Below are positions 1-21,638 of a stretch of DNA of 64,000 nt, in pieces (the first letter of the stretch is position 1; each line of letters opens with the position of its first letter). A model generated the notes under the pieces. It saw nothing but the letters and a program-made list of their open reading frames with translations. It was not told the origin of the DNA and did not search any database. The stretch is from Escherichia phage vB_EcoM_EP57, in sequence record OR544956. One strand, given 5' to 3'. Made by a program: the position numbers and the translations under genes.

Positions 1-356
1 TCATACGAACCCAGTCAATATCTCTCCCTTTAAAACAATATAAGGATGGGTATTGATAACCTGGGTAAGGAATACCACGCCAACCGTCATATAATGCTGT
101 GTTAGGATCACTAATATTGGAAAATGGAATGATTCCTGGAGTATAATTCAAACTATCAAGTTTGTAGTCCAGTATTGTACAATCTCCAAGTTTTGCTGTA
201 TAAGGATTTTCAGATGAAACTGTAACCCTGAAATACATTGTGTAATCATCGCCAGCGGCTGAAGAATACAAAGATGGGATATCGTTAACGCAATAAAAGT
301 CGATTGCCCCTGTCAAGCCATTTGCAGGTTCAGAATCCAATGCAATATTGATCTGA
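1..356 (-). CDS. tail fibre protein, distal portion (partial, runs off window start; apparent continuation of 357..1406 in another frame)
   Basis: minus-strand frame open from ~400 to position 1 (>118 codons, Gly/Tyr/Asp/Pro-rich), no start codon with RBS, overlaps end of upstream ORF. Confidence 0.3.
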
Positions 357-1406
357 TCAACAGCAGTCAGGTTTATTGACGAAGGTTTTGCCTCGTTGCC
401 AAGTACTTAATTTGAAATCGGCAGGACTTAAAGCTTTAGTAACCCATGCAGAATTTGTTTTTTCTAACATGGCCCACCATCTCCAACCTGCGGAATCCGT
501 AATAGTGATGTTAAAATCATCTGCGTATGAACGATATGTAATAGATTTTAAATTGGCTGTTTTAGTTGGTGTTAACCAAAACCCAACAGTAAAACCACCA
601 TCTGAATCCATATTAGCAGAAACTATCTGATCACTATTTGTCCCAGCAATACCAGTTGCATATTTATATTGTATCACAGTATTGCTTCCCCAGTCAACAA
701 TAATTCTGGGTTCAGCAATAATATATACACCCCCTCCAGGAGGTTCAGTGCGCATAAAACTGGATAAAGGTATATCCATCTTAGTCATATTAGCTGCACC
801 AAGAGGTAAGCCACAACGATATGTCACTGTGTCTGTTTCACTCTTAGTCTTGCTTAATTCTAACTCTGGACGGAAAAGAACACCTTCCCCTGCATCATCT
901 ACACCTTGAAACTCAATACGCAGTTTTGAATTCTGATCCACTCTGAACCAAACTGCTTGTTGTTCTAGAGTTGTTTGTGCTGCAACATCTTGGCGAATTA
1001 CTGTGTATCCTAACTCGTCACGAGAATATTTAGGTATTGCTGTAGATGGGTATGAGTAATCATACGAGATACCATCTGTAAAAGGAATTATTGCTGTCGT
1101 AGATCTACGGAAGAATTTATCAAACATATCGATGTTTGAGTAGTCTTGACACAGCAATAAAGAAGATTGCCAGCAAAGCCAGTATTTTCTCTCTCCTGTG
1201 ATCTGATACATCAGGTAGTTTGCATCACACCACCACGTTTCAGCATCGGAAGCATTATCTTGATAACCTAACTCTACCGGAACGTTTACAGGACGGTTAT
1301 GCCACATCTCATTACGCTTAAGCAGATATCCACCGTGTTCTACAGGGTTGCATGTAGCGTAGTTGAATTTATAGTCACCGTTCACAGAAGCATTTTTAAG
1401 TTGCAC
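357..1406 (-). CDS. tail fibre / receptor-binding protein, middle segment; frame stays open upstream to ~1622
   Basis: 349-aa ORF; track start is an internal GTG; Trp/Tyr/Gly-rich fibre-like composition; position at distal end of tail module. Confidence 0.35.
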   Translation of the reverse strand: MQLKNASVNGDYKFNYATCNPVEHGGYLLKRNEMWHNRPVNVPVELGYQDNASDAETWWCDANYLMYQITGERKYWLCWQSSLLLCQDYSNIDMFDKFFRRSTTAIIPFTDGISYDYSYPSTAIPKYSRDELGYTVIRQDVAAQTTLEQQAVWFRVDQNSKLRIEFQGVDDAGEGVLFRPELELSKTKSETDTVTYRCGLPLGAANMTKMDIPLSSFMRTEPPGGGVYIIAEPRIIVDWGSNTVIQYKYATGIAGTNSDQIVSANMDSDGGFTVGFWLTPTKTANLKSITYRSYADDFNITITDSAGWRWWAMLEKTNSAWVTKALSPADFKLSTWQRGKTFVNKPDCC

Positions 1407-1480
1407 TGTTCCATATTCTGCAAAGCTGTGACCTGTAGATAAAATGTTACCGTCCCAATCAACTTTACGTCCTAGACGAT

Positions 1481-2107
1481 CTATAATCCATTCAACGTCC
1501 CACTGATCTCCATATTCTTTCCAGTTGGTTGAACCGTCTGGGTTAATTGCATAAACTGTTGCGTTAACGGAGTTCCAACCAAGATTACCATTGAAAGCAA
1601 ACCAAGCTTTATCTGCGCACCTTTAGGAATAATAGTCCTTCCGTTAATCCAAGTCATCATGCTACCTTTGAACCCACCGTGCGTAGGATACCCATCATCT
1701 GTGAGAGGATAGTGTGCTAAACGTGGTTCTTTACCATTGATGATCCAGTTGGGACGATATTTAGCTGGAGGATCAGGAATAGGTTGGCCCCCGAAGAAGT
1801 GATCTATATAGGCTTGCCAATACTTCTCGGCAGATTCAAGATATTTTTTATCCCCTGTAGCCAAATATGCATAAGCAAAACCAGTGATAAGCACAGATTG
1901 ACCTTCGGTAGTAGCGTCACCGTTTGGTTGCCCTTCCTGCGCTGTCCAGTTAATAAAGTGTCTGTTGTTCGCCAATACGTTTTGTGGGTTGATAATGTAA
2001 TGCTGAACCGTAGGATCTATGGTAAGCCCAGTATTTCTTTCCAAAAACTGAACCAACCCTTCAATCAACTGAAACGTGTTGTCAATATTGTGCTTAACTC
2101 TTGACAT
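1481..2107 (-). CDS. tail fibre protein, N-terminal segment (upstream frame of the same interrupted gene)
   Basis: 208-aa ORF; its last ~45 codons overlap the open upstream extension of 357..1406; TAATG coupling to 2107..2400. Confidence 0.35.
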   Translation of the reverse strand: MSRVKHNIDNTFQLIEGLVQFLERNTGLTIDPTVQHYIINPQNVLANNRHFINWTAQEGQPNGDATTEGQSVLITGFAYAYLATGDKKYLESAEKYWQAYIDHFFGGQPIPDPPAKYRPNWIINGKEPRLAHYPLTDDGYPTHGGFKGSMMTWINGRTIIPKGAQIKLGLLSMVILVGTPLTQQFMQLTQTVQPTGKNMEISGTLNGL

Positions 2108-2400
2108 TAAATAACTCCTGCTAAAACTAAGCTACCTGTCCAAGTTGCACCATTATCATAACTGATAAACTCAAAAGTGTCTGTTGCACCTTGACGATAA
2201 CTCAAAACTGGGGAACGACCAAAACTCCATTTTACAGAAGAAGGCCATACGACTTTATTTGCACCACTTCCTTGACGCAAAGCTAAAGTAAAGTTTAAAA
2301 CTGCATTTGTTGCTACTGGAATATTAGTAAAACTAATTGTGCACGTTGCAGAAGATAAAGTTGCAGAAAAATATTCTGCTGAACTAATATCTAATGCCAA
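2107..2400 (-). CDS. hypothetical tail/baseplate protein
   Basis: 97-aa ORF in the tail module; TTG start; 17-nt overlap with upstream ORF. Confidence 0.3.
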   Translation of the reverse strand: MALDISSAEYFSATLSSATCTISFTNIPVATNAVLNFTLALRQGSGANKVVWPSSVKWSFGRSPVLSYRQGATDTFEFISYDNGATWTGSLVLAGVI

Positions 2401-2578
2401 GGCTGGTTACTGTTCCCCGTGCATTCAGACGGTTTCTAGTTACCCCTGCACCACTCAACAACACTTTCAAAGAAGTTTTCTTTGTTATTCCAGCCTGATC
2501 TGTTACAAAGAAATCTGTATCAGACACAGAGGTTGTTTGTGTAAGATCAGAAATTTTGATCGTAGTTAAATCTGCCAT
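2384..2578 (-). CDS. hypothetical tail/baseplate protein
   Basis: 64-aa ORF; ATG overlaps stop of upstream gene (TAATG). Confidence 0.3.
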   Translation of the reverse strand: MADLTTIKISDLTQTTSVSDTDFFVTDQAGITKKTSLKVLLSGAGVTRNRLNARGTVTSLGIRY

Positions 2579-3204
2579 TACTCTTCTACTCCTGTCATAG
2601 CTGTTATACCGAAATTATTGTTTGTAGTTAATGCATCACCTTTTTCGTTAACCATGATTCTTTCCACTGCTGACTCTGTAGACCATTCATTCCACCAAGT
2701 AGAGTAGGTATCACGTGGCAAACCAACAAAGTTGATAAAGCGATAAAGTCTATTCGAATTCTCAACAATACTGTAAGCTTCACAAATGATCGCTGCATTG
2801 TCTTCACCAGCTTCAGGGTAAATAAACTCTTCAGAAGGTTGAGTATTGAATATAGATGTTACTGTATCTGCTCCTACTGTGACCATAACTGTCATTGAGT
2901 AATAACGTTGATCCATGTCATAAGCAGATTTATAACTGTTTATTGTATCTATGTAAACGTTTTTGGCAATCTCTGCTAAAAATATTCTGTCTACAATATC
3001 TTTCTTTCTAGCAACACCAATAATCTCTTGTAAGTAAGGAACACCGAAGTTAGTATTTAAAAACCACTCCCCACGATACGTGTTCAGAGTTATCCCAAGA
3101 GTTTGTGCTGCAATTTCTGTTCTGGTTGTAGTGAGGACCAAATCCCCATCATCCATGATGAGGTCGTTGTTTGGTCCAAGTTTTAAGTCAAAAGGGATTC
3201 CCAT
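2578..3204 (-). CDS. baseplate protein
   Basis: 208-aa ORF in collinear tail module. Confidence 0.35.
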   Translation of the reverse strand: MGIPFDLKLGPNNDLIMDDGDLVLTTTRTEIAAQTLGITLNTYRGEWFLNTNFGVPYLQEIIGVARKKDIVDRIFLAEIAKNVYIDTINSYKSAYDMDQRYYSMTVMVTVGADTVTSIFNTQPSEEFIYPEAGEDNAAIICEAYSIVENSNRLYRFINFVGLPRDTYSTWWNEWSTESAVERIMVNEKGDALTTNNNFGITAMTGVEE

Positions 3205-3205
3205 G

Positions 3206-3940
3206 TTAGGCTCCTGTTGGTTTTAAGGACTCGGCACTTGAGTTACCGCTCTGAATGTTACGAACCGTGTGCGTGTGAGTATGGAATCCGATGCCATTAC
3301 CATCTGTCATCAAACCGTTCTGGTCTATTTTAAGACCATTGATATCTGCCACGCCGCCTTTGAAAGTTAAATTACCACCTTTTAGATCCAAAGTCCCTGT
3401 GCCATCTGTAATAGTAATACCAGAGGTGGTAATATCTATTTTCATCCCTTGACTATTCCATATTGAAATATTACCTGTAGGGTCGAAAGAAGCGTACGTG
3501 TTTTTGTTATTAGAAATAACTACCTTTTCAGAATCTACAGCTTCTGTTGAATCTGTTCCTGTAGCTATTTTGGGAATAAAACAAATAGGGTATAATCCAC
3601 AAGGCTGCATAAAAGTGGATGATGAAGAGGTTTCTCCACTAGTTTGCAGTGCATTAGAAGGATCTCTTTCAGAAAATATAACAGTTCCTAAATCGCCAGC
3701 TTTAATAGGGAATGAGATTCTTCCTGTCCCACCACCATTAACCATAAAAGGAACATCTTCAAAAGTAGGGTAATCTATTTCATCTTCGCTAGATCGTGTG
3801 TTTTTAACAATAGATTCTAAGGTGACAGTCTTAGCACCATAATTAACGCCAGTCACACGGACTGGCAGGGCTGTATGGACTTCTGCTAATTGTTCTGTCA
3901 TTAAGCCACGCATTGCTGTGACAAAATTTAATGCATCCAT
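3206..3940 (-). CDS. baseplate spike-like protein with C-terminal Gly-rich repeats and HTHTHT motif
   Basis: 244 aa; C-terminus GGNLTFKGG...NGIGFHTHTHTV resembles beta-helical spike tips carrying HxH metal-binding motifs. Confidence 0.4.
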   Translation of the reverse strand: MDALNFVTAMRGLMTEQLAEVHTALPVRVTGVNYGAKTVTLESIVKNTRSSEDEIDYPTFEDVPFMVNGGGTGRISFPIKAGDLGTVIFSERDPSNALQTSGETSSSSTFMQPCGLYPICFIPKIATGTDSTEAVDSEKVVISNNKNTYASFDPTGNISIWNSQGMKIDITTSGITITDGTGTLDLKGGNLTFKGGVADINGLKIDQNGLMTDGNGIGFHTHTHTVRNIQSGNSSAESLKPTGA

Positions 3941-4950
3941 TATTTCTCCTTAGTCATTATTTCAGACACAGATACACACTCCACTTCAGTAACCCACTCT
4001 TTACCCTCTTTATCACCATTGTGAGAAACAGAAACAACTTTAAACGGACCATCATAATCTCGGCTTTTTAACCAGATTGTTTTTTCTGGTAATATTGCAC
4101 CATTCATTTGGCATTTGAATTTAACACCATCTGTAGGTTTCTTTGCCTTCTTAGAGGACTTGGTAACTTTTTTAGTAGGTTTTATATCGTTGTGGAATGG
4201 TTCTGGACTTCCTATCAGACCAGTTTCAGGGCTAATGTAGGCGCTACGTGCACTAGACATTTGTGAACGAGGAGTGACATAAACAGATCCATCTTGTATT
4301 GACACATTGTGATCAATACTTTTACAAATATGTTCTAGGTAATGTGAAGTGTTTCCACACATAGCTGTTGCTGAAGATAAGGTTTGATCATTATCTACGT
4401 GTATATTACCTTCTGTAGTTCCTAAATCCTTTACCAAATCTGTCACAACACGTTTGATTTTAGTTCCTTTTGGATAACTGCGGCTTGTTCTTGCTTCTGC
4501 AATGTTAATACCGCCATCCAAACAGTGTAAAGTGGTTTTCCTGTCTACCGAGTCAAAAGTATCACTAACCCACTGGATAGTTCCTTTGAAAATCATAACC
4601 AACTCTTCACCTTCGTATCCTACCGCTAAAGCAACAGCCAAGTTATTTCGGATACCACGGTTTATATAGTTAACAGTATCATCCGAAAGGTTATAAACTA
4701 CAATCTCTGCTTGGTTAGGATCTTTGTTATTATCTTTCTTAATACTGAAGGTTATTTGATGGTCTTGCAACAAATACAAATTAGAAGAGGATTTTTCTGT
4801 TGTTCCTAACTTGGTATCCAAATCTACTGTAGATTTAAATGCCGAGTTCTTAGTTCTCTTCTGTATTGTGTTTGTGGCAGAACCAATTAATAGTTTGTAT
4901 GCCCTGTTTAAATTAGGGGCAGGAGCTTTTGTATACTCTCTTTCTGCCAT
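3940..4950 (-). CDS. baseplate protein
   Basis: 336-aa ORF; start overlaps stop of upstream gene. Confidence 0.35.
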   Translation of the reverse strand: MAEREYTKAPAPNLNRAYKLLIGSATNTIQKRTKNSAFKSTVDLDTKLGTTEKSSSNLYLLQDHQITFSIKKDNNKDPNQAEIVVYNLSDDTVNYINRGIRNNLAVALAVGYEGEELVMIFKGTIQWVSDTFDSVDRKTTLHCLDGGINIAEARTSRSYPKGTKIKRVVTDLVKDLGTTEGNIHVDNDQTLSSATAMCGNTSHYLEHICKSIDHNVSIQDGSVYVTPRSQMSSARSAYISPETGLIGSPEPFHNDIKPTKKVTKSSKKAKKPTDGVKFKCQMNGAILPEKTIWLKSRDYDGPFKVVSVSHNGDKEGKEWVTEVECVSVSEIMTKEK

Positions 4951-4959
4951 ATTATCTCC

Positions 4960-5373
4960 TTACGCCTGATTAGGTTTGTTATCAATATAAACCAATACAA
5001 AACGTTTATCTCGACCTGTAGTTGTATACCCAGGACGACCATTAATCTTGACTGTATCTACTATATATAATTGACCATCTGGCACACTTTCAAGATATTT
5101 ATAAGGTTTAAGAAGATCTAAACCATTTGTAACTTTGAAACTTATACTCGGATCATCCCCAGATAATCCCATCTGACATTGCCAAGATTCGTCCCTAGTG
5201 TTCCACCTTAAACGAATGTCATAATCAACCCCATCCAATGTAACTGTATATGTTTGATCAGGGTACTCTTCAGTTTTCAGATACCATGCAAAATAAGTAG
5301 AATGGTCCTCCAGATAAACTGCACTGTAGCCTGTATTACTTGTAGACCTTGTTGTTTTAGAATAAGTTGTCAC
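4960..5373 (-). CDS. hypothetical tail protein
   Basis: 137-aa ORF in tail module. Confidence 0.3.
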   Translation of the reverse strand: MTTYSKTTRSTSNTGYSAVYLEDHSTYFAWYLKTEEYPDQTYTVTLDGVDYDIRLRWNTRDESWQCQMGLSGDDPSISFKVTNGLDLLKPYKYLESVPDGQLYIVDTVKINGRPGYTTTGRDKRFVLVYIDNKPNQA

Positions 5374-5375
5374 TA

Positions 5376-6077
5376 TTAACCTCCGTTGTTTGTTGGGGTA
5401 TTAGTAGCTTTGGCAGTTCTTACTGTAATATCTGACTTAGGACCATCCGAAGAAACTTGACCTTTCACATCACCACCAGTCGATTTATTTGGTGCTGTTT
5501 TTACAGCAATAGCATTAGTAGTGGCCTTAGAAACGAGACGGATTTGTTCGAACTCTAAATCAAATTGCATAGCAAATTCAGATTTATAATCATAAGAGTA
5601 GCCTTTGAGAATAACATTTTCAAAAGTTCTGTGTTCTGTCAAAAGAACTATTGGTTGTCTTGACTCAAATATTTGATCTAGATATTCTATTGCTTGAGAA
5701 ATCCTTGCACCATTTACACCTGCACTGTATAATTGATCTCGCATAAGCCGAATTGGTGTTTCGGTAATTATACCTGAAAGTTTAAATCTGTTGTTTTTTA
5801 TTTGAACGTGGTCACTTACATCCGATCCTGATTCTACTGGAAAACTTGTAACATCTGCCTCACGAGTTACACCTATTTCAGGGACTGAATCGAAAGTAAT
5901 TGCTTTAAAGTTTTGAATGTATTGATCACTTGAACTATTATAAACACTTGCTAAAATGCAGAAACCATTATCACCCTTTACAGTAGATGCCGAGGTATTT
6001 TTATTCTCGGTAGAGTTGATTTCCTGTTCTGCCTTATAGACGGCTCTCACCGACTGTTGTGGAGTCATTGCTGCCAT
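5376..6077 (-). CDS. hypothetical tail protein (distal tail / baseplate hub candidate)
   Basis: 233-aa ORF immediately downstream of tape measure gene. Confidence 0.3.
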   Translation of the reverse strand: MAAMTPQQSVRAVYKAEQEINSTENKNTSASTVKGDNGFCILASVYNSSSDQYIQNFKAITFDSVPEIGVTREADVTSFPVESGSDVSDHVQIKNNRFKLSGIITETPIRLMRDQLYSAGVNGARISQAIEYLDQIFESRQPIVLLTEHRTFENVILKGYSYDYKSEFAMQFDLEFEQIRLVSKATTNAIAVKTAPNKSTGGDVKGQVSSDGPKSDITVRTAKATNTPTNNGG

Positions 6078-6169
6078 GATAACCTCGTAGTAATGATAAT
6101 GCCAAAAGGAAGATGCAAGATCTTCCCATATTGATTATTGTAACACATATAGAAACTTCGTGTCAAGGG

Positions 6170-6198
6170 AAACGAAAAAACCCCGCCGAAGCGAGGTA
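6170..6198 (-). terminator. stem-loop plus T-run downstream of tape measure gene
   Basis: minus strand CCTCGC-TTCG-GCGGGG followed by TTTTTT. Confidence 0.35.
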
Positions 6199-6203
6199 TT
6201 TTA

Positions 6204-8048
6204 TTAACCACCAGTGTTAGATTGTCCACTTAGAGTTGAAAGAGATAAACGTTGGAAAATGCTATTTCCGCTATTTTGAATTCTTGCATCAAGAATATTT
6301 CCAAACTCTGAAGAAGGGCTGATCGTAACTTTGATAAGATCACTTGGTATTGCTACCGTATTCTCAACAACAGGTTGATTACGAGCCAAACTTACATTAG
6401 GTGTATATGCCGACTGACGTAAATCTTCCAGAGGATTACCAAATCCAAAAGCACGTGTCCTTGTTTGTTCTCCTCTCCACATACGACCAATATCTTGTGT
6501 ATCAATACCTGTTAAATTGTACAACCAATCTGCTACAGGATTGCTGTCTCCACTTTGCGTTGCCTCGTATGCTTTTTGTGCTAAAGATTTATTAGGATCT
6601 GTGTCTTTAACGTTATCCAACCAAGAATCATCTTTAGGTAAGGCTTTCACAAAACCCTCTAAGAAGTGGTTCTGCATACCTTGACCTACAAGCTGAACTG
6701 TTGCAGCAAAACGAGTAAACTCTTTAGAAGCATCTATTTGTTCTTGAGTTAATGTTGCACCTGTTCTTTGAAGCATTTTCAATACTTCATTATACCCTTC
6801 GCCGTTTTTACTAAACATACGTTGGTAGTGCATAAGGTCATCACCAAGGTTTTCAAGAAGTCGCCCGATTTGAGCAGAGTTCATACCTCGACGCTCACCT
6901 TCATTAACAGTAGCCTGAATAAAAGCTAAAGGATCGTTCTGTAAAGGTTTAAGCTGTTCTGGATTCCATCCAAACAAGTTCATAATGTCATTTATGCCAT
7001 TATCACCGCCTTTCCACTTCCCTTCTTTCTCATTCCATTTTGAGGCTAAAACTGTATTACCAAGACGTTCACGAACGTCTTTAATATTATCTATTGACTT
7101 AATAATATTTGCAGAGTCTACACCGTTCTGTTCACCCCAAGCTGTCATCGCTAAAATAGAGTTGGCGTTTGTCTGAACGTTTTCAGCGCCACGACTTACA
7201 AGTTTAATTCTTTCGTTAGTATTCATCAACGTGTTACCAACTACAGAACCACCTGCAAACAGCCCAGCACCTATTAAAGAGGATGCAATCATGCGTGGAT
7301 TAAGACCTGCTGCACCTTCTTTTAATTGTCCATATCGACGATCACGATCACGTTTTTGTTGAGCTAATTCACGCTTACGGTTGCGTTCTATATCTCTAAG
7401 TTCACGATTTCGCATACGTATACGCATTTTAGCTTCTGCTTCTAGCTCTCTACGAATACGGCGACGACCGCGAACCTCGTCTTCTATTTCAGCATTCTTT
7501 TCACGATGAGATCTGCGTAAGGCATCTAACTGGTGAGCAAGAGCTTGGTTCATACGTTGAAGAGTTATTTCACCCTTTTTGTATTGCTCTACAGCTTTAC
7601 CCATAACGTCCCTAGCTTCTTGCATAGCCCCAGGACTGGCTTTACTAAATGCTCTTGCTCTGTAGTTAAAGTTCTGCAAACGAAGATTACCTAAATCTTC
7701 CCTACGTGCTGCTGCTTTAGCTTCGCGTTCAGCAGCTTTACGAGCTTTTTCTTCTTCTCTTCCTTGCGGGGTTTTAGGAGTTCTAGGTCTACCAGATCCG
7801 CCTACAGGAGCACCCGCTCCAGCGGGAGTAGGTGCTCGCATAGGTTTTTGACTTTGAGTTTGAGCTTTCTTAAGTTCACGCTCAATCTCTTTCATTTGTT
7901 GTCTAAACTTGGTCATGTTCATAGTGGGTTGCATTTTATTTGCAAACTTCTGAACACTCAACACGGCATCTTTTGCTTCCTTGAGACTGTTCTTGTCCAC
8001 CTTAAACGTAACCACGTTACTAATTTTGGAGGCGTTAATTTCTAACAA
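6204..8048 (-). CDS. tail tape measure protein
   Basis: 614 aa, long charged coiled-coil stretch (REEEKARKAAEREAKAAARRE...), directly downstream of the frameshifting chaperone pair. Confidence 0.5.
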   Translation of the reverse strand: MLEINASKISNVVTFKVDKNSLKEAKDAVLSVQKFANKMQPTMNMTKFRQQMKEIERELKKAQTQSQKPMRAPTPAGAGAPVGGSGRPRTPKTPQGREEEKARKAAEREAKAAARREDLGNLRLQNFNYRARAFSKASPGAMQEARDVMGKAVEQYKKGEITLQRMNQALAHQLDALRRSHREKNAEIEDEVRGRRRIRRELEAEAKMRIRMRNRELRDIERNRKRELAQQKRDRDRRYGQLKEGAAGLNPRMIASSLIGAGLFAGGSVVGNTLMNTNERIKLVSRGAENVQTNANSILAMTAWGEQNGVDSANIIKSIDNIKDVRERLGNTVLASKWNEKEGKWKGGDNGINDIMNLFGWNPEQLKPLQNDPLAFIQATVNEGERRGMNSAQIGRLLENLGDDLMHYQRMFSKNGEGYNEVLKMLQRTGATLTQEQIDASKEFTRFAATVQLVGQGMQNHFLEGFVKALPKDDSWLDNVKDTDPNKSLAQKAYEATQSGDSNPVADWLYNLTGIDTQDIGRMWRGEQTRTRAFGFGNPLEDLRQSAYTPNVSLARNQPVVENTVAIPSDLIKVTISPSSEFGNILDARIQNSGNSIFQRLSLSTLSGQSNTGG

Positions 8049-8068
8049 AGTATGTTCCTCGTGTTGGA

Positions 8069-8407
8069 TTAAACAAGTTTCTTAAACAAATCTGACATTT
8101 TATTTGTCTGGTTTTGATGTTTTCTCTTTATTGAAGTGTCTTTAACATACATGGCTTCAACATACTCTTCGTATGTTAAATACTCATATAGTTTTAAAAG
8201 ATAATCTACACCGTAGTTATCCAATGTTTTCAGTGTTTCCGAGGTATCTTTAACGACTTTGCAAAGAATAACCTCATACCACTTCAAAGTAAGGGTTTTC
8301 GTTGCTGTGTCGATAGCATGTTCAATCGCAGGTGTTAATTTGCTGCTAAACTCGTCATCGCCTGAAGCTGTGTGAACAGTTTTCCGAAACCTCGTTTGAA
8401 AAAAGGG
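8069..8407 (-). CDS. tail assembly chaperone frameshift extension (GT-like, reached by -1 slip)
   Basis: -1 frame is open continuously from the slippery site at 8398..8407 to the stop at 8069; downstream ORF has no RBS of its own. Confidence 0.45.
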   Translation of the reverse strand, partial: PFFQTRFRKTVHTASGDDEFSSKLTPAIEHAIDTATKTLTLKWYEVILCKVVKDTSETLKTLDNYGVDYLLKLYEYLTYEEYVEAMYVKDTSIKRKHQNQTNKMSDLFKKLV

Positions 8408-8817
8408 CCGTAGTTTACCTCCAGAACTTTAGCAGTAAGATCTAACACTAGTTCTGGGTGAGCCATAAATAATTCATCAAAATTTTCTGCAACGTTATAA
8501 CCGTCTTGAGTATAAACCTCATCTAAAATTTTACGCAAAAATACAGTTAAATTCTTTTCTTCCAAACCTGCAAAAAGTTGGATCAGTGCCATAGCAATAC
8601 GTGACTCAAGGTCTTCGTCTGCGGACATTGTTGCTGTGCTATACATAGTCATAGGAACAACCAGAACACTACCCAATTCTGGAATCCTGTCAAACACTTT
8701 AGATGGACTCCACTTCATAATACGGAAAGTAACAGATCTGTTTCCATCTAACGGAATCTCAACTACTTCTTCTGGTCGAGCATATTTTTGAATCGTGTTA
8801 TCTTGTTCTTGTGACAT
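8335..8817 (-). CDS. tail assembly chaperone (G-like, zero-frame product)
   Basis: 160-aa ORF between tube and tape measure genes; slippery run near its 3' end. Confidence 0.5.
   Translation of the reverse strand: MSQEQDNTIQKYARPEEVVEIPLDGNRSVTFRIMKWSPSKVFDRIPELGSVLVVPMTMYSTATMSADEDLESRIAMALIQLFAGLEEKNLTVFLRKILDEVYTQDGYNVAENFDELFMAHPELVLDLTAKVLEVNYGPFFKRGFGKLFTQLQAMTSLAAN
8398..8407 (-). promoter_or_regulatory. programmed -1 ribosomal frameshift slippery site (CCCTTTTTTC)
   Basis: zero-frame codons GGC CCT TTT TTC; X_XXY_YYZ heptamer T_TTT_TTC. Confidence 0.45.
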
Positions 8818-8821
8818 ATTT

Positions 8822-8850
8822 TCCTCTCTAATGATAAAAAGGGCATTTCT
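8822..8850 (-). terminator. stem-loop plus T-run between tube and chaperone genes (attenuator candidate)
   Basis: minus strand AGGGCAGAAATGCCCT followed by TTTTATC. Confidence 0.3.
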
Positions 8851-8862
8851 GCCCTTTATTTA

Positions 8863-9314
8863 TTATTGAATTGTCAGAGCAGAGATTGAGTTAAGGGTGC
8901 TCAAACCTACACCAACTTCATTACGCAGAAGACTTGCATCTTTAAGACCAATAACCCATTGGTTCTCTGTAATCATTTCGCCAATAGTATCTTCAGGCTG
9001 ACTTTGAATCCATCCAATCGTGCTAATGTAATAGCCACGTGGGTCTTCCAAGTAAACACTGAACGCTACTTGACGAGTAGAATACATTGTTTGTGCATAT
9101 GTTGCAAGCAAGACATTGTGAGTGTTCCCAAACGGTTACGACTCAAAGCTAGTGAAACGTCGCCATCAGTCCCTGAATAAGGGTTGATAATATCGTTAGA
9201 TTTAGCAATAACGATTTTAGTATCAGCCGCAAAACCCCACGGTTCCCAACCACCTAATGAAAGGATAACTTGAGATGGGTCGTAGGCCATTACGCCAGTA
9301 AGCATTTTATCCAT
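8863..9314 (-). CDS. tail tube protein, interrupted by an apparent frameshift near 9111-9138
   Basis: two overlapping 82-aa ORFs in different frames (9066..9314 and 8863..9111); second has no RBS and TTG start; together ~145 aa, tube-sized, between sheath and chaperones. Confidence 0.4.
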
Positions 9315-9360
9315 TATAGATCCTCTTTATTTTGATAACGGGGGCTTAACCCCCGCCGTA

Positions 9361-10734
9361 TTAGTTTGCAGTACGGTTAGTCAGGACGTTGACCTGAACT
9401 TTAACGTAATGGAAGAAGCCAGCGTAAACATATTCAATCTTCATCCCATCGACCAGACGAGCATTGATTTGCGCATCAGTCATATCGGCACGAGAAGGAA
9501 TATAAACAATAGGTTTCAGATCGACACGCAAACCAGTCTCTTCAGAAGTAACAACTTCATTAGCGATGGAACCGTTGAGGATACCTACTTGGATTGGGTT
9601 AGCCAGAACAGCTTGTCGAATCAAAGCCAGACCGTTTGAAGTAGCACGAACACCACCACCCAGCATAGACTGTTGTTTAAACAGTGTAAACAGTGATTCT
9701 TCTGTGCGAGCTTTAAACCACAAAGCATGAACAACATAGTCAACAAAGAAACCGCTAACCATCAATCCATCACGATAGAACAGAGTTCCATGCTCTTTAC
9801 GATAGATGTTACCGTTCTGTTGAACAATATTGTTTTCCGAAGTCTGATCCAGTTTCTCGATCTCTACACCTACCAGTGTTTTACCGTGAAGAGTAGTTAA
9901 ACCAGGTTGACGAGAACAGATTGCACCAACAACTGCTGCTTCTGGGAATACAGAATCTGCATCGGTCATCCACAAAGCAAAGCAAGTGTTATTATAACCG
10001 AGGTCATTCAGTCGTTCCAGAACGTTATCTTCTGCTTTCGTTTTAATTCCAGGTTCAGAACTAGAGAAGAAGTAAACTTTATCATTCTCTTCTACCCATG
10101 CAGCCAAAGCTAGAACATCTTCTGTTTCATGGGAATCTGAAAGGGTCCAGAACCAGCTACTATCAATATCATGCAGAGCAGCGATATCTTCCGTAATAGC
10201 ATTAGCATAGACAGTTTCTTGAGTGAAACCTGTGCTGTCAATAGAACCAAACTTACCTTCTACTGGAGTGAAAGTCATTGCAGCGCCGTTGTTAGCTACT
10301 GTAAACAGTGGGCCATAAACAAGATCTGCATTGATCATTTCAGTCAGACCAACTACAATCTCTTGTGCAGTTGCAGTGTCATCAGCAATGAATTTAAATT
10401 CTTTTTTCTTGGTACCATTTTTGATGGTAATTGTGTAAGTTGCACTATCTTCTACGATTGGAGTTAGAGTAAAGTTTGTAACTTCACGCTTACCAACCAT
10501 GACTTGATCTGGTGGGAACAAACCGTTAAACAGTTTGACTGCCATAATATACGCTGGATCATTTAATCCATAACCTGCTTCCAAAAGTGCATCGGAAGAA
10601 GAGTAATATTGAATCGCTTCGCCAGTTACGTTCTGACCTGTAAGGATCAGGGGAATATCGAACTGGGTTTCACGAATTGATGTAGCACCATACAGTAAAG
10701 TTACGGTTGCTACCTTTTCACGAAAAGTTGCCAT
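9361..10734 (-). CDS. tail sheath protein (or major tail protein)
   Basis: 457-aa ORF immediately upstream of tube and chaperone genes; hairpin after its stop. Confidence 0.4.
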   Translation of the reverse strand: MATFREKVATVTLLYGATSIRETQFDIPLILTGQNVTGEAIQYYSSSDALLEAGYGLNDPAYIMAVKLFNGLFPPDQVMVGKREVTNFTLTPIVEDSATYTITIKNGTKKKEFKFIADDTATAQEIVVGLTEMINADLVYGPLFTVANNGAAMTFTPVEGKFGSIDSTGFTQETVYANAITEDIAALHDIDSSWFWTLSDSHETEDVLALAAWVEENDKVYFFSSSEPGIKTKAEDNVLERLNDLGYNNTCFALWMTDADSVFPEAAVVGAICSRQPGLTTLHGKTLVGVEIEKLDQTSENNIVQQNGNIYRKEHGTLFYRDGLMVSGFFVDYVVHALWFKARTEESLFTLFKQQSMLGGGVRATSNGLALIRQAVLANPIQVGILNGSIANEVVTSEETGLRVDLKPIVYIPSRADMTDAQINARLVDGMKIEYVYAGFFHYVKVQVNVLTNRTAN

Positions 10735-10768
10735 TTATGCTCCTGTTAGAAACTTAATTCCAATGAGT

Positions 10769-11407
10769 TTATTCGGTAGGGTTGTTAAATAATGATCCAT
10801 TTTGATTGACTGACGAGTATTCGCCTGGAACCAAAGTAATTGCATAAACCCTGTTTAGAATTAAATCTAAAGGGATAGGATCATTGTAACTATCTCTGAA
10901 TGAACGGATGTGCATGTTGATTGCTTCTATTGGTGTAGTAGCAATATCTTCAATACTCATACGAGTGTTGAACGTCATAACCATACGCGCTCTTAATTCA
11001 GTCTTATCTCCGTCTACAATTGTATTGGCTTGAGCTATATTGGAGGCTCCTAAAAAACCAAGACCTTTAGAATAGAGATGTTTGTATTTTAATTCCTCTG
11101 CACCACGGAGAGCAGCCAGAACATAGCTCATCAAAGTGGTAGGTCTTCCACGATAGGCTACAAGTTCAATCTCGTAGGTATTATCCATCTCGTAGGAATA
11201 CATATCATTTTGAATAGAGCTTCGGTAAGACCAACCTCCAGAATCGCTGGAAGTGATAATATGTAGTGCTAGGTAAGGAGTATCCGGTTTAATGAATGGC
11301 TTATCCATAACATAGACTGGCAACCCCACTAATTCTTGAAGGAAGCCACCTATATTTAAGTAGATGGCATTTTCGTATGCTTCTATTTGTTGGTAAATAT
11401 TAGCCAC
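10769..11407 (-). CDS. hypothetical head-tail joining / tail completion protein
   Basis: 212-aa ORF between head and tail modules. Confidence 0.3.
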   Translation of the reverse strand: MANIYQQIEAYENAIYLNIGGFLQELVGLPVYVMDKPFIKPDTPYLALHIITSSDSGGWSYRSSIQNDMYSYEMDNTYEIELVAYRGRPTTLMSYVLAALRGAEELKYKHLYSKGLGFLGASNIAQANTIVDGDKTELRARMVMTFNTRMSIEDIATTPIEAINMHIRSFRDSYNDPIPLDLILNRVYAITLVPGEYSSVNQNGSLFNNPTE

Positions 11408-11503
11408 TGTTCTGTTCCTTGTTGTAACCCCTTCATTTCTGTTTTAGTCCAGAAACTATATTGAGCCTTAGATCTGTAACCTTCAGGTAGTGCATTCAGT
11501 GTT

Positions 11504-11695
11504 TTACCAGATATCGGTTGTAAGCTTGCCTTCAATGGTAAATGGTTCATATTCTACACTACTTTCTAAGTTAGCAATAACTGAACCAACAGCCTCTTTG
11601 TAGACTCGTCTACGACCTTGGTATTCAGTTAGATCAAGGAGAGTAAATTGATCTAGTAACACTTGTATCTCCTTTTTAGTATACATCAAAAACAA
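11504..11695 (-). CDS. hypothetical protein
   Basis: 63-aa ORF, same strand, intergenic fit. Confidence 0.25.
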   Translation of the reverse strand: MFLMYTKKEIQVLLDQFTLLDLTEYQGRRRVYKEAVGSVIANLESSVEYEPFTIEGKLTTDIW

Positions 11696-11707
11696 AGTTT
11701 ATGCAAG

Positions 11708-12196
11708 TTATTTTTTAGACTTGCTTTTTGTGATTTTTGTTTCGATTGCATTTATCATGTGTGCCGTATCTATTAAGATATGATTAGAATAGTTTCCTTT
11801 ATCTTGTCGTATCTTAATTGTCACAGGAGACAAAGGACGATAACGTTGCATTGCAATCGCTTGAGCTATTCCTTCTCTAGAGGCTCTCGCTATAGGCTCA
11901 AAAACAGCTAACCCGACATTATTCATTAAGTAATTTGCAAACACCTGCTTCATCTTTTTAGCGATATCGTTCTGTGAGATAACAGCACCATCTGTTATAA
12001 AAGGGCGAGCAGGTATGTTATTTGTTTCATTACCATATTGTTGAATAGCTGCTATTGCAGGAATAGTGAGATCTGATTCAGGATGCCTTTTGTTTGTTAA
12101 AAAACCAGCTTCGATTTGAACTTGTTCAAGGTCCATCATCTTTTTGATAATGGTTTCCCAATCTGTATCGTCACCTGGTAAGATCTCACTTTCCAT
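11708..12196 (-). CDS. hypothetical head-tail connector protein
   Basis: 162-aa ORF; start overlaps upstream stop. Confidence 0.3.
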   Translation of the reverse strand: MESEILPGDDTDWETIIKKMMDLEQVQIEAGFLTNKRHPESDLTIPAIAAIQQYGNETNNIPARPFITDGAVISQNDIAKKMKQVFANYLMNNVGLAVFEPIARASREGIAQAIAMQRYRPLSPVTIKIRQDKGNYSNHILIDTAHMINAIETKITKSKSKK

Positions 12197-12744
12197 TATT
12201 TGTCCCTACGATAAAAAGAAACAGGTCCGTAATTTCGCAAATAATTAACGTTGCGTGTATTCCGATCAACACTTGCAACATTACCAAGACCATTTACAGA
12301 GTTAGGATCGCTGTTTACTCGATCAATCTCACGAGCATCCACACCACCAATAAGAACTTTACTGGTTGCTCCTCGTCCTGCCGTGCACCCAGGGATCACC
12401 ATAAGACCATTTAAATAGTTATGATAGATATCTTCCCACGGAGATTTATAAGTGACTTGACCGTTGTTAAATTTAACTTCAACTTCGACTTCACCCATCT
12501 TTTCTCTGCGGGACATAGCCCCTCCTGTTTGAGTACTGTTGTTAAGAACATCGTTGTTCCATAAATACTCTAAAACAGAAATCAAGCTGTTCCACAATAC
12601 TGCACACTTATCCTTATCTTCATTCCCTATAATATCAATCCAAGTTTGGATGATCTGAATCAGCATTGCGTCTGGCAATACTTCTTGAGAAGGGTTATAA
12701 ACAAGGATTCGGATCAGTGGTGCCAACTCTACCGCATTCAGCAT
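12196..12744 (-). CDS. hypothetical head completion / adaptor protein
   Basis: 182-aa ORF in collinear block. Confidence 0.3.
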   Translation of the reverse strand: MLNAVELAPLIRILVYNPSQEVLPDAMLIQIIQTWIDIIGNEDKDKCAVLWNSLISVLEYLWNNDVLNNSTQTGGAMSRREKMGEVEVEVKFNNGQVTYKSPWEDIYHNYLNGLMVIPGCTAGRGATSKVLIGGVDAREIDRVNSDPNSVNGLGNVASVDRNTRNVNYLRNYGPVSFYRRDK

Positions 12745-12753
12745 AAGCCCACC

Positions 12754-13152
12754 TTATTTTTTACGAAGGGAACGTTTTTTAGCTGGAGTGTCTACCGCTT
12801 CTACTTTTAAAACTTCTTCTTTGATTTTTACAGGCGAATAGTCTTCATAACTTACAAGATAGTAACCCATGTGTTCTTCACTTGCAAAAGGATGCACAAG
12901 AATACCTGTTTCTTCTCTCAAACGCGTGAGGAAGTGAATGAAGTTTCCACCTAATGCAATACGACCATCTTTCAGATAGAAAGACATTGGTGGCGCAGAT
13001 ACTAATGTTTTATCAGCATCAATCAGTGGTGAAAGCGATTCGAAATCACGAATCATTTCGTGATAACTAAAGTAACGTTTCAATTCTGGGTTTGACATAT
13101 CAATCTCCTCATTGTAAACTCTTATTGTAAACAGAAAAGGCTCGCCCATCAC
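12754..13152 (-). CDS. hypothetical head protein
   Basis: 132-aa ORF downstream of capsid gene. Confidence 0.3.
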   Translation of the reverse strand: MMGEPFLFTIRVYNEEIDMSNPELKRYFSYHEMIRDFESLSPLIDADKTLVSAPPMSFYLKDGRIALGGNFIHFLTRLREETGILVHPFASEEHMGYYLVSYEDYSPVKIKEEVLKVEAVDTPAKKRSLRKK

Positions 13153-13182
13153 GGACGAGCCTCTAATATTAACAGAGTTCTA

Positions 13183-14184
13183 TTAAGCCGTAGTCAGTTT
13201 AACTACCAGTTCTGGACGGGTGTTAACTGCGAGCAGCGAGAATTCAGACTGAAGCTGAATAGTGCGGTGCTGGCTGATCATGAAGGTATACAGTTCACGA
13301 GCCTGGGTGTTAGCCAGTTCTGGAGTATCCGCAGGAGCGTAGTGCGCCTGGAACATACCTTCGATACCCATAGGCAGAACATATGCTTCACCAGCAGGGA
13401 TGTTACCGTGGATATCTTCAATGTAAGTTACACCGTTCCATTCGAACACCTGAACATCCATGTTACCGCTAAGGCGGTCACGCAGAAGGTTAGGAGTTCC
13501 CTGGAAATACTGATATGCCTGGCGAACAAATGGAGAGTTAACCAGAGATGCGAAAAACTCACGAGAACACAGAGCTACGATACGGGTAGCGGTAGAGCCA
13601 TCTTGTTTAGTATCGATGATGTAAGCACGAGCTTCTTGTTCGATAGTGGCTGCTGGAGAAACAGTGGTAGAAGCAAAGTCTACAGCAACAGATTTCTGGG
13701 TAGCACCCCATTCGGTATACCAGTTGTATGCAGAGTTAGCTGCACCACCTACGCCGTTATAGGCACGACCCATAACTGCTTCTGCAAAGATTTTCTCTTT
13801 GGTTTTTGCTACGTCACGCAGAATCTGGGACATATAGCGGTTAACAACTTCAGCGTCTGTGCGCAGAGAGTCATTGATTCCTGCCATTGCAAAGCTACGG
13901 AAAGATTGAATATCTTGAGCTTTGATGTTTTTATCCAGAGGGAAGAACGGAATGCGGAACGCTTTCAGTTCTGGATTTTTCATGGTCAGGAAGTTACGCT
14001 CACCACCACGCTCACGAGCGGAGATCAGAGCATCTTCAGCTTTTTCTTTACCGATTTCAATAGCGGTAGTTGAATGATAGTCAACACTGAACAGATTCAG
14101 GCTGGCAATCAGTGTATCAGGGGAATCCTGAAGTTCGATCATAGGGCTGAAATCTACAACCTGATCTAAAATTACTGCTGGCAT
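13183..14184 (-). CDS. major capsid protein (candidate)
   Basis: 333-aa ORF downstream of scaffold-like and decoration-like genes; size and position typical of HK97-fold capsid proteins. Confidence 0.45.
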   Translation of the reverse strand: MPAVILDQVVDFSPMIELQDSPDTLIASLNLFSVDYHSTTAIEIGKEKAEDALISARERGGERNFLTMKNPELKAFRIPFFPLDKNIKAQDIQSFRSFAMAGINDSLRTDAEVVNRYMSQILRDVAKTKEKIFAEAVMGRAYNGVGGAANSAYNWYTEWGATQKSVAVDFASTTVSPAATIEQEARAYIIDTKQDGSTATRIVALCSREFFASLVNSPFVRQAYQYFQGTPNLLRDRLSGNMDVQVFEWNGVTYIEDIHGNIPAGEAYVLPMGIEGMFQAHYAPADTPELANTQARELYTFMISQHRTIQLQSEFSLLAVNTRPELVVKLTTA

Positions 14185-14205
14185 TATATTAATCTCCTAT
14201 TAAAA

Positions 14206-14604
14206 TTAAGAAGTGAAAACGACTTTTTCGGTCAGTTTCAGATCATGTGTTTCCAGTGCTGCTACGCCAGCGTCATCTACCAGGGAGCCATCTTTGTAGT
14301 ATACTGCAAAGCGGTTCAGAGTAAGATCACGTACGCCAACAACTGCGGTGAAAGTGTCACCTACTGCTACATCGTCAATACCGAACAGAGCATCAGTCCA
14401 AAGCAGAACTTTAGCAGCATCGGCAGCTTCAGCTTTAGCAGCTTCAGTGTTGTCAGCTTTCAGGATAGAACCAATTTTCATGGTTGCTGTTTTAACCAGG
14501 TTAACTTCACGTACACAGTGTCCAAGGTCAGAGCTAAACACTCCACCCAGAACCAGGTGTCCGAATTCCTGGCGAGAGTTAGATAAAGTAATTCCTTTAG
14601 CCAT
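14206..14604 (-). CDS. hypothetical head protein (decoration candidate)
   Basis: 132-aa ORF, strong RBS, between scaffold-like and capsid genes. Confidence 0.3.
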   Translation of the reverse strand: MAKGITLSNSRQEFGHLVLGGVFSSDLGHCVREVNLVKTATMKIGSILKADNTEAAKAEAADAAKVLLWTDALFGIDDVAVGDTFTAVVGVRDLTLNRFAVYYKDGSLVDDAGVAALETHDLKLTEKVVFTS

Positions 14605-14623
14605 TTAATTTAATCTCCTAAGA

Positions 14624-15739
14624 TTATTGTTTCTGGGCTTTTTTAAGTTCAGCAGCTTTCTGACTAATCAGTTCAGAAGAAGATTTAGCTACAGGTTGAG
14701 TATTGATCACATCAACACCACGTTCTGTTCCAAATTCTTTCTTAACTGCGTCCACTTCTGCACGTGCTTTTTCGAATGCTTTGACGATAGTTTCAGCGAT
14801 ATCTTTATTGTCTACCAGATATTTAACGAGAGCTTCAACTTTGTCTTCTTCTACGAAAGAATAGGATTTAACAACAGTTGTATATTCTTCTTCGATACGA
14901 GCTTGTTCAGCTTTACGAAGTTCTTCTGCTTCCTGTTCTGCCTTAGCGATTTTTTCCTGTGCTTCAAGTTCTGCGGCTGCACGTGCATCTGCTGCTGCTT
15001 TTTCTACAGCTTCAGCGATCTGTGCTTTCATCAGTTCTTGGAATTCAGCAGATTTCAGGAATTCTTCTTTGTTGATATTTTCCAAAGGGGTTTCTCCTTT
15101 ATTGATTCCAGTTGTGTTTGCAGATTTATCACCTGCGGGGTTAGCCTCTGCATCCACAGAGTTTGTATTAGCTTTAGCGTGAGCTTTCACTAAATAATCT
15201 TTAACTTGACTTTGTTTCAAGGAACTCTTAACGAGATTACTCAAAGCATCGTCTAAAACGTCCTCAAAGAAATCAATGGAGATCATTACATCACCATCAA
15301 CAACTTGATAATCAGTAACACGAACAACAGGTTTAGCAACCTCTTCAACTTCAACATTCAGTCCGTCAACTTTAAAGCCAACAGAGAACATACCGTTATC
15401 TGAACAGAAAATTGCAACGTTCGCATCGAAGTCAGCATCAATAACGTAAACCCAATCCCAACCAGCTTCAAATTTTTCACGCACTTTTTCAGAAATGCGA
15501 TCCATCACTTGTTGAATATAGCTTTTACGTAACTCTGTAACATCTTCTCCCATTTTAGTGAGAGCTTCTAACTTTTCAAAAGTTATGTCTGGAGATCCGT
15601 CTGACTTAAATAAAAGGGGGGTATTATAACCAGATGCCGCTCCACCTTGAAAATCAAAAGTGTAAGCAATATGAGCACCTAGTGACTCTTCCGTAGCTTT
15701 TCCAGAAAAGTCTACGTTAGTTAAATATGTATTTGCCAC
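14624..15739 (-). CDS. head scaffolding-like protein
   Basis: 371 aa with Ala/Glu/Lys-rich predicted coiled coil (AADARAAAELEAQEKIAKAEQEAEELRKAEQARIEEE). Confidence 0.35.
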   Translation of the reverse strand: MANTYLTNVDFSGKATEESLGAHIAYTFDFQGGAASGYNTPLLFKSDGSPDITFEKLEALTKMGEDVTELRKSYIQQVMDRISEKVREKFEAGWDWVYVIDADFDANVAIFCSDNGMFSVGFKVDGLNVEVEEVAKPVVRVTDYQVVDGDVMISIDFFEDVLDDALSNLVKSSLKQSQVKDYLVKAHAKANTNSVDAEANPAGDKSANTTGINKGETPLENINKEEFLKSAEFQELMKAQIAEAVEKAAADARAAAELEAQEKIAKAEQEAEELRKAEQARIEEEYTTVVKSYSFVEEDKVEALVKYLVDNKDIAETIVKAFEKARAEVDAVKKEFGTERGVDVINTQPVAKSSSELISQKAAELKKAQKQ

Positions 15740-15741
15740 GA

Positions 15742-16221
15742 TTAGTCCTTCTTGACTTTAACGCCCATTGCGCCTATACTCAAACCTTTAAGAACGCCGT
15801 CTTTACGAGCTTGATATAATTCAGGGTCGTTGAATTGGATTTTAACGAGGGGAGTTCCTTCCACAACGAGTTCGTCACCAATGTAACAATCGACTTCATT
15901 TACCCAAGCTTTAATTGGAGAAAACTTATCGGTGTTCTTCATGTGACCAAGATTACCACTAATGTTGGTAATATTCTCATTGAAGTTGTCAACCATCTTC
16001 CTGATTTCCAAATCAGACATGCGCTCTCCGTGGAGATCGTCTTCTTCAGGTGGACAATACAAGACCTCAATAACCTGCATCTTTTCTTCATCAAATTTAT
16101 TTTGTTTGACTAGAGTTTCAGGTTTTTGAGATGGTATAGAATCTTGTTGGGATTCAGAATTCTCTTTAAAACCAGCGAAGGTTTTGAAGAGTTCCCACAG
16201 TGTATCTTTATTGAGTTCCAT
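15742..16221 (-). CDS. hypothetical head morphogenesis protein
   Basis: 159-aa ORF between portal and scaffold-like genes. Confidence 0.3.
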   Translation of the reverse strand: MELNKDTLWELFKTFAGFKENSESQQDSIPSQKPETLVKQNKFDEEKMQVIEVLYCPPEEDDLHGERMSDLEIRKMVDNFNENITNISGNLGHMKNTDKFSPIKAWVNEVDCYIGDELVVEGTPLVKIQFNDPELYQARKDGVLKGLSIGAMGVKVKKD

Positions 16222-16314
16222 TTGAAACCTCTTAAAAACAGATATCCCATAAATCTTAGTCTACAGGATATTTGTTGTTTTGTCAATAGAAAAATTAAAA
16301 AATATTAAATATTT

Positions 16315-17880
16315 TTAATTCGACAGGTTTTGTGCTGAAGGATCTAAAGCAGAAACAGTATCAGACGTTCCAGTTCCCGCTGTAGCTAAACCGTCTCCTG
16401 ATCGTGAAGTTTTGTCAGGCATATAGTTATCCATGAATTCAAAGAATTTCTCTTTATTGGCAACAATATCGTCAGGGATACGATATTCAAAACCAATTTT
16501 TTCAAGGAACTCGTTAATAACTTCTGGGGTTAAAGGTATTGCACCAGAGGCTACCAACTGCTGAATAGCTTTAGCATTTACTTCAATATCAGGATCACCC
16601 ATTTCACCACTGACAAACTTAGGCATATCTTCATCAGAAAGGAAGATATTGTTTAGTCGTAGTGTTTGAGGGATCAGTTGAGAGTTTATAGCTTCTACAA
16701 CAATATCTACATCTCGCTCAATAAAATGAGACAATAGTGTTTGTTTGTTGTCAGAAAGCGCAAAACTTCCTGCATCACCATCACCCATAATCAACACACC
16801 CGCACCAAAACGGTTATAAATATCTAGCTTGCGTTGTTTGATTAGTGCTTGAGTGTCAAACTGTTTACCCGTGCCATCAACACCTTGGAATACAAGATCG
16901 TATTGACGCATCACTGTGCCTTCATAAACGTCTGAAGGCAATACCATGTAGGCTTGCTCCCCAGAGTGCAGGTTAGCGATGTTGGCTTGAAGAACTCGAA
17001 GAGATTGTGCTTCATCCCCAGCAGGATCTAAAGATGCCCTGTTTAGAATGTCACTTGGAACCTTAAGAACTGGCATACCACCTAAATCTTTAGATACCCC
17101 AATAACCTCAAATTCCTGAATAAGAGATTTTTCACGCCAGCTACGATATACAGCTAAAAGCGGACTAACTCCTAGTGGGTTATTCTCTGTAATGTTGCTA
17201 CCAACAAATAAAACTTTACTGAAAGGAATTTCTTTAATACCAGTTTCTAAAGTTGTATTACCTGGAGCTAACATCGTATTGGTGATATTCTGGTTAACAG
17301 ATAGAATAGAACGTCCGTCTGCCGAATATGTAAAAGGTTGAGCCATGTGAAGAGTGTCTTGTGGTCTAAAAGCCAGTTTGGTTAATCGCCAATACCCAAA
17401 GTAAGGACTTTTAGGATCTTCATCCAACTCATAAACTTTCTCTGCGAATGCAAAACCATATTGCTTATATGTCAAAAGTGATCTAACATATTGACGTAGA
17501 GGGGCTTGCATATTGCGTAACATGTAATCAATAAACTTAGCAGCTTTTCTTGACTTTGCCGAGTTTACATTGTATTTTATCTTGAAATCAAAGAATGCTC
17601 TATCTACAAAGATATATGTAGCGTCAAGAGCAGTAGCTACATCAGGGTCTTCACCCATCTCTTTAAAAGTGCGAATACATTCTGGGAAACGAGTCTCATA
17701 AGGTTGCATGAAATTCGTAAATGCTTTGATTGAGTTTAATCCGATCGTTCCTATTTCAGGTGACAGGAGTAACGTTTTCTCTTTCTCTGCCTCTTTTGTT
17801 GGAGAGAGAGCAGCTTTATTTGCAGCACCTTTGTCCCAGTATTCTGACTTTTTAGTGTACGTTCTTTTTCCTGTTGACAC
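16315..17880 (-). CDS. portal protein
   Basis: 521-aa ORF immediately downstream of terminase large subunit; promoter-like element upstream. Confidence 0.5.
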   Translation of the reverse strand: MSTGKRTYTKKSEYWDKGAANKAALSPTKEAEKEKTLLLSPEIGTIGLNSIKAFTNFMQPYETRFPECIRTFKEMGEDPDVATALDATYIFVDRAFFDFKIKYNVNSAKSRKAAKFIDYMLRNMQAPLRQYVRSLLTYKQYGFAFAEKVYELDEDPKSPYFGYWRLTKLAFRPQDTLHMAQPFTYSADGRSILSVNQNITNTMLAPGNTTLETGIKEIPFSKVLFVGSNITENNPLGVSPLLAVYRSWREKSLIQEFEVIGVSKDLGGMPVLKVPSDILNRASLDPAGDEAQSLRVLQANIANLHSGEQAYMVLPSDVYEGTVMRQYDLVFQGVDGTGKQFDTQALIKQRKLDIYNRFGAGVLIMGDGDAGSFALSDNKQTLLSHFIERDVDIVVEAINSQLIPQTLRLNNIFLSDEDMPKFVSGEMGDPDIEVNAKAIQQLVASGAIPLTPEVINEFLEKIGFEYRIPDDIVANKEKFFEFMDNYMPDKTSRSGDGLATAGTGTSDTVSALDPSAQNLSN

Positions 17881-17949
17881 TTGTTCCTCCAGTCAGGTAT
17901 AAAATCGTTAAGGCAAGGCTGTATTATATACAACCTCACCTATCTAGTT

Positions 17950-17978
17950 ATAATACACTTTAAAGTGACTTTTGTCAA
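17950..17978 (-). promoter_or_regulatory. sigma70-like promoter upstream of portal gene
   Basis: minus strand TTGACA - 17 nt - TATTAT. Confidence 0.4.
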
Positions 17979-17981
17979 CAA

Positions 17982-20057: not shown

Positions 20058-20060
20058 TCC

Positions 20061-20887: not shown

Positions 20888-21049
20888 TTTTAACTACAAA
20901 ATTGCGCATATTTTATCCTCCTCATATCTGATCTTATCACAAAATGATATATAATTGCAAGCATTAAAAATAAAAAAGCCCCTAACCTTTCGGAGAGGGG
21001 TGTTAAAAATAACAAGGAGGAGGGGCAAAGCCCCAAGAGAGGAGAGGGA

Positions 21050-21346: not shown

Positions 21347-21368
21347 AATAAAATCCTCCTAAACTTTA

Positions 21369-21396
21369 TCTTAACATATAAAAAATAATAAGTCAA
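21369..21396 (-). promoter_or_regulatory. sigma70-like promoter upstream of 21050..21346
   Basis: minus strand TTGACT - 16/17 nt - TAAGAT, then AGGAGG RBS. Confidence 0.35.
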
Positions 21397-21632: not shown

Positions 21633-21638
21633 ATTATG

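Follow-up and report, generated by a model that had tools for sequence, protein, structure and literature searches.

Two short deletions split a tail fibre gene into three reading frames in a phAPEC8-like phage record that is most likely faulty

In the sequence recorded for Escherichia phage vB_EcoM_EP57 (OR544956), of which a stretch of 64,000 nucleotides (the window) was analysed, a large fibre gene at the left edge is split into three reading frames by two short deletions. These belong to a set of at least 28 deletions, accompanied by no insertion (0), that separates the window from its closest relative, phage tuntematon. We infer that the deletions are most likely technical, with a probability of about 0.8, and that they reflect a faulty record and not biology. 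This reading is preferred because the lesions are deletion-only, random in place and size, free of microhomology, unique to the record and blind to the essentiality of the genes that they hit, and because they lie over substitutions that have been normally selected.

Sequence matches show that the window comes from the genome of a phAPEC8-like myovirus (Phapecoctavirus, Stephanstirmvirinae): over positions 1..4000, about 64 Phapecoctavirus genomes align at 95-99% identity and phi92-like phages at about 78%. Across the whole window the closest relative is tuntematon, which differs from it by 309 mismatches over 63.9 kb (0.48%). The window DNA was not found in E. coli complete genomes searched with a 2.5-kb query, so that this collection holds no resident or integrated copy that would be able to decay.

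Six-frame translation revealed that, on the minus strand, frame 2 is open over 2131..1484, that frame 1 is open over 1622..360 (421 codons) and that frame 2 is open once more over 406..2, where it runs off the window edge. Successive stretches overlap by 139 nt (1622..1484) and by 47 nt (406..360). The list of open reading frames agrees on the ends, giving 1481..2107 and, when counted from the first GTG, 357..1406. Both analyses confirm the three overlapping open minus-strand frames described in an earlier note, which had been drawn up from the sequence alone. They also bear out its observation that a start codon with a ribosome-binding site is found in the first stretch only: the ATG at 2107 has AGGAG nine bases upstream, whereas the first start codon of the middle stretch (1622..360) is a GTG at 1406 that lacks a Shine-Dalgarno sequence, and the third (406..2) lacks any start codon close to its 5' end. 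Related phages have a single 2877-nt CDS to which all three open stretches align in the same order, and the three-frame pattern is thus not due to chance.

The two junctions were mapped by alignment with the phages nieznany and tuntematon. At 1614..1615, 19 bp are missing, which read CACACTGGGGAGAATACTT on the minus strand and correspond to nt 494-512 of the reference CDS (codons 165-171, PHWGEYL). At 394..395, the loss is of 17 bp, CTAATCACGAAGACACA on the minus strand, which in the reference CDS are nt 1733-1749 and cover codons 578-583 (PNHEDT). Both junctions have 0 microhomology, and at both 15/15 bases match on either side. When the tuntematon bases are re-inserted, the frame extends over 714 codons with zero stops, and the alignment of this repaired fusion with fibre proteins, as the earlier note had proposed, identifies a single gene that is identical to tuntematon gp142 at 712/714 residues. 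The prediction of one fibre gene of more than 700 aa is therefore upheld, the gene having 958 codons in the relatives, of which 714 lie inside the window. The shift points expected near 1620 and near 360-400 could be placed at 1614|1615 and 394|395. The interpretation of the lesions as frameshifts holds in part: the changes of frame are real, but they are caused by gaps of 19 and 17 bp with respect to the relatives and not by single-base slips.

Segment A (1615..2107, minus strand) runs from the ATG at 2107 and contains native codons 1-164 and the first base of codon 165; its first 164 residues are identical to those of tuntematon gp142. Translation starting at 2107 would then enter 44 non-native codons (1481..1614, minus strand) and end at the TAG at 1483..1481, giving a predicted product of 208 aa, made of 164 native and 44 out-of-frame residues. 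As recorded, the gene is not readable past codon 164 in its native frame. Segment B (395..1614, minus strand) holds native codons 172-577 in the -1 frame, its own start codon and ribosome-binding site being absent at the 5' end. In a tblastn search against IMG/VR, most loci cover query residues 4-409, which indicates that homology begins and ends at or close to both junctions. Segment C (1..394, minus strand) comprises native codons 584-714 and shares the frame of segment A again, since the two losses add up to a multiple of 3 (19+17=36); past the left window edge, the gene runs on for about 244 codons. Such a restoration of the frame is expected under compensation but occurs one time in three by chance, and we regard it as a coincidence. 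A search for further compensating pairs was negative: in the minor head gene, 152+2=154 is not a multiple of 3, and no pattern emerges with 19+17.

In an alignment of 12 homologues sharing 42-87% identity, the 19-bp deletion takes out the invariant P165, G168, E169 and Y170, together with the near-invariant W167 and L171.

In nieznany, phAPEC8_ev052 and tuntematon, the counterpart is one CDS of 2877 nt (958 codons), annotated as 'tail protein' or 'tail fiber'. The baseplate hub, spike and wedge genes and a gene for a 157-aa 'tail fiber protein' lie immediately upstream of it. The family profile phrog_2871 ('tail protein') is matched by the tuntematon orthologue with E=0 over residues 1-957. 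From this match and position, the gene is predicted to encode a large tail protein or fibre of PHROG 2871 that is associated with the baseplate. Tuntematon gp142 (YP_009986518.1) and nieznany gp228 (YP_009986348.1) are the same gene in the same synteny, from which the window copy differs by its lack of 19 and 17 bp. All the full-length Phapecoctavirus matches listed span 2239 bp for a 2201-bp query, i.e. 38 bp more (19+17+2 bp); in the phi92-like records (78% identity), the part covered is longer by 19 bp. The bases at both fibre junctions are kept in all of the approximately 114 related GenBank phage records. These records, and 26 IMG/VR loci that contain the whole gene at 37-87% amino-acid identity, show one open frame of 948-1100 codons. 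Three separate orthologous genes with starts of their own, an arrangement that the earlier note had considered, occur neither in these approximately 114 GenBank records nor in the 26 IMG/VR loci.

The gene is also the orthologue of that of phi92 gp141 (CBY99570.1; features Phi92_gp140/gp141), with which it shares about 78% nucleotide identity along its length. A table in a review, which cites Schwarzer et al. 2012, gives 'glycosidase' as the prediction for phi92 gp141, a component of the multivalent adsorption apparatus (PMC5380687); the glycosidase label of the gp141-like protein is a prediction that we take from this one table. The same protein is among the fibre and spike proteins conserved in the phAPEC8/phi92-like group (PMC10269720, PMC8594841). 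Searches of Pfam, of the PDB with phmmer and of the PDB with a 12-sequence profile returned no match for the tail protein. A large protein database yielded 8 partial homologues only, and the AlphaFold model of segment B, computed from a shallow alignment, was unusable (pLDDT 37.8).

Homologues of the tail protein were also observed on 15-54-kb IMG/VR contigs (loci L014-L036), which are possibly P2-like prophages. The L025 homologue, a protein of 1097 aa encoded at 2987..6277 of its contig, carries at its N-terminus the Pfam domain Tail_P2_I (P2 gpI baseplate; residues 6-142). L026-L028 have the same 1100-codon frame and probably contain Tail_P2_I too. This fusion suggests how the tail protein may anchor to the baseplate.

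The fibre-gene lesions are not isolated. The deletions with respect to tuntematon remove about 6.1 kb from the window, in individual losses of 1-4044 bp and at a density of about 1 per 2.3 kb. Ordered by size, they measure 1, 2, 2, 4, 6, 6, 7, 10, 12, 15, 17, 19, 20, 26, 28, 28, 38, 39, 51, 63, 65, 107, 135, 144, 152, 152, 873 and 4044 bp. Ordered by position, the first bases of their junctions are 394, 1614, 2401, 6604, 9109, 11405, 11529, 20056, 22925, 24503, 24823, 25186, 25252, 25554, 25721, 26121, 27538, 30032, 31004, 38385, 44979, 46575, 53837, 54077, 54254, 56809, 56909 and 60776. Natural pairs of these phages at 1-1.8% divergence show only indels of 1-2 bp, together with one of 3 bp and two of 6 bp, and insertions are about as frequent as deletions. 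There is no bias towards in-frame losses, the length being a multiple of 3 in 11/28 deletions and not in 17/28. The mean microhomology at the junctions is 0.92, compared with 0.73 ± 0.20 when deletions of matching length were placed at random in simulations, which is the level of chance, and the spacing of the deletions is Poisson-like (CV 1.03). Deletion directed by a motif, such as restriction or methylation sites, was considered and rejected, as no k-mer is common to the deleted segments beyond chance. The deletion at 60776|60777, located in a small hypothetical gene (homologue of tuntematon gp187), shortens A5 to A4 by 1 bp and is the only one of homopolymer type.

Comparison with other records leads to the same view of lesions confined to this sequence. 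Over 2500..24500, every near-full-length match listed is 383 bp longer than the window, and a few are longer by up to about 500 bp. Over 25260..31500, the closest records listed have 190 bp more beyond the 4044-bp junction, and others have more; the alignments of the relatives break exactly at this junction (25721|25722). At the junctions examined, none was common to any listed relative. The 24-mers across both fibre junctions are absent from IMG/VR, a result of little weight since an intact 43-mer used as a control is absent too. The first of them is also absent from JGI metagenomes and GTDB genomes, an equally weak negative given the failure of the control in IMG/VR. An intact parent genome, sought with a 46-mer containing four private SNPs, was not found in IMG/VR or in metagenomes.

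In all, 25/28 deletions fall inside annotated genes. The upstream neighbour of the fibre gene (2107..2578, minus strand) is the orthologue of tuntematon gp143, a 157-aa protein of phrog_9017 ('tail fiber protein'). It is split into ORFs of 64 and 97 aa by the loss of 2 bp at 2401|2402, a deletion found in no listed relative. At 9109|9110, a 28-bp deletion shifts the frame of a 159-aa virion structural gene (phrog_280) that lies where the tail tube is canonically encoded, flanked by the genes for the sheath and the tail assembly chaperone. The gene for the minor head protein and the start codon of gp153, which follows it, are hit by deletions of 152 bp and 2 bp, and the tape measure protein has lost 144 bp. 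The large terminase has lost, at 20056|20057, the 6 bp that separate its AAGGAGG ribosome-binding site from its GTG start codon; the junction re-forms a GTG that directly abuts the Shine-Dalgarno sequence. With the 4044-bp deletion at 25721|25722, several small adjacent genes are lost, one of them for an HNH endonuclease, as are approximately the first 46 codons of an ATP-dependent DNA ligase, inside which a further 107 bp are gone at 26121|26122. A phage with the genome as recorded could not propagate. Since deletions of the same type also strike essential genes for the virion and for replication, nothing singles out the fibre gene, and the question of host range becomes moot.

Of the differences from tuntematon, 164/309 are private to the window, being absent from the four relatives compared. 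Read in the local open frames, the private substitutions amount to 125 synonymous and 38 nonsynonymous changes window-wide, with no private nonsense change in the window, while the 145 shared polymorphisms divide into 103 synonymous and 37 nonsynonymous. In the fibre gene, read in its three local frames and including the middle segment, private substitutions comprise 16 synonymous and 2 nonsynonymous changes. A pseudogene under relaxed selection would be expected to show about 3 times as many nonsynonymous as synonymous changes, together with nonsense changes. The ratios of 125:38 and 16:2 indicate that the lineage was under ordinary purifying selection until the deletions appear; this makes a pseudogene in decay, or a copy that has long been defective, less likely. 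Private SNPs show no excess within 20-200 bp of the junctions. A consensus artefact due to low coverage might have predicted such an enrichment, and the clean flanks and the lack of SNP excess fit a real but dead DNA molecule equally well.

The record could accordingly be a faithful sequence of real, non-viable DNA from a defective Phapecoctavirus, for instance from helper-dependent particles or from DNA rejoined without homology. The junctions are sharp, with perfect flanks and no error-like noise nearby, and their freedom from microhomology is what blunt end-joining would produce. Yet 28 independent deletions would have had to accumulate in 64 kb without any excess of nonsynonymous or nonsense substitutions (125:38), not one junction is common to any related record, and E. 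coli complete genomes contain no resident or integrated copy. We thus consider this origin, the main rival of a technical cause, unlikely. The more specific scenario of a replication-defective genome that acquired dozens of blunt deletions fast, possibly through cleavage by host defence nucleases and end-joining and with the assistance of a co-infecting helper, appears less likely still. An equally slender chance is given to a viable phage in which both fibre deletions are real and reflect a genuine loss of the fibre, by pseudogenisation or by adaptation. The group carries several lateral fibres and spikes (PMC8594841, PMC10269720), one of which might be dispensable on some hosts. However, the damage to the gene in the tail-tube position, to the minor head protein, to the gp153 start, to terminase initiation and to the ligase is incompatible with a propagating phage; the 16:2 ratio in the fibre gene includes a segment that would be untranslated; and four residues that never vary among the homologues aligned are lost with the first deletion. 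The decaying gene put forward by the earlier note is disfavoured on the same grounds, since the lesions are not confined to dispensable genes and the substitutions in the gene remain 16:2.

Two further mechanisms are both extremely improbable. Fibre genes are phase-variable in some phages, and slippage in a repeat tract of such a contingency gene could shift the frame. Both shift zones lack any homopolymer of at least 5 bases and any simple repeat of at least 4 units, the 19 and 17 absent bases form unique sequences, and the close relatives listed show no length polymorphism; phase variation, also suggested by the earlier note, is excluded for these reasons. Alternatively, programmed recoding, by successive ribosomal frameshifts of -1 and +1, might restore the full-length protein: the frames go 0, -1, 0, and the overlaps of 139 and 47 nt leave room for shift sites. 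In contrast to this expectation, no in-frame X_XXY_YYZ heptamer is present over 1660..1470 or 430..340, and orthologues at 37-98% identity are all encoded in one continuous frame. Even perfect shifting would lead to a protein devoid of 12-13 residues, including the invariant P-x-W-G-E-Y motif, and recoding is excluded as well.

The evidence favours an error of assembly or sequence, the remaining option raised by the earlier note, with 28 unselected deletions that are unique to this record. Bases may have been dropped during reconstruction or handling of the sequence, through a consensus that skipped uncovered positions, through mis-assembly or through later corruption of the record; the source phage would then almost certainly carry an intact fibre gene. 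Consensus and assembly artefacts in deposited phage genomes are likewise unique to one record, break conserved genes regardless of their essentiality and leave no signature of selection. In contrast, typical platform errors are indels of 1-2 bp in homopolymers, whereas 24/28 deletions in the window are at least 4 bp long, with sizes up to 4044 bp, and one only lies in a homopolymer. The sizes of the deletions and the single homopolymer case thus point to dropped stretches rather than to base-calling slips.

Unless the deletions are real, they have no bearing on an open biological question, and the record serves as a quality warning for the whole sequence. Taken at face value, it would suggest a phage that lacks a receptor-binding protein and several other genes, and it could mislead host-range prediction, counts of pangenomes and pseudogenes, and any search for recoded or phase-variable genes. 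The combination of lesions that are deletion-only, record-unique, unselected and microhomology-free with a normal synonymous-to-nonsynonymous ratio provides a test for such artefacts that can be reused on other records.
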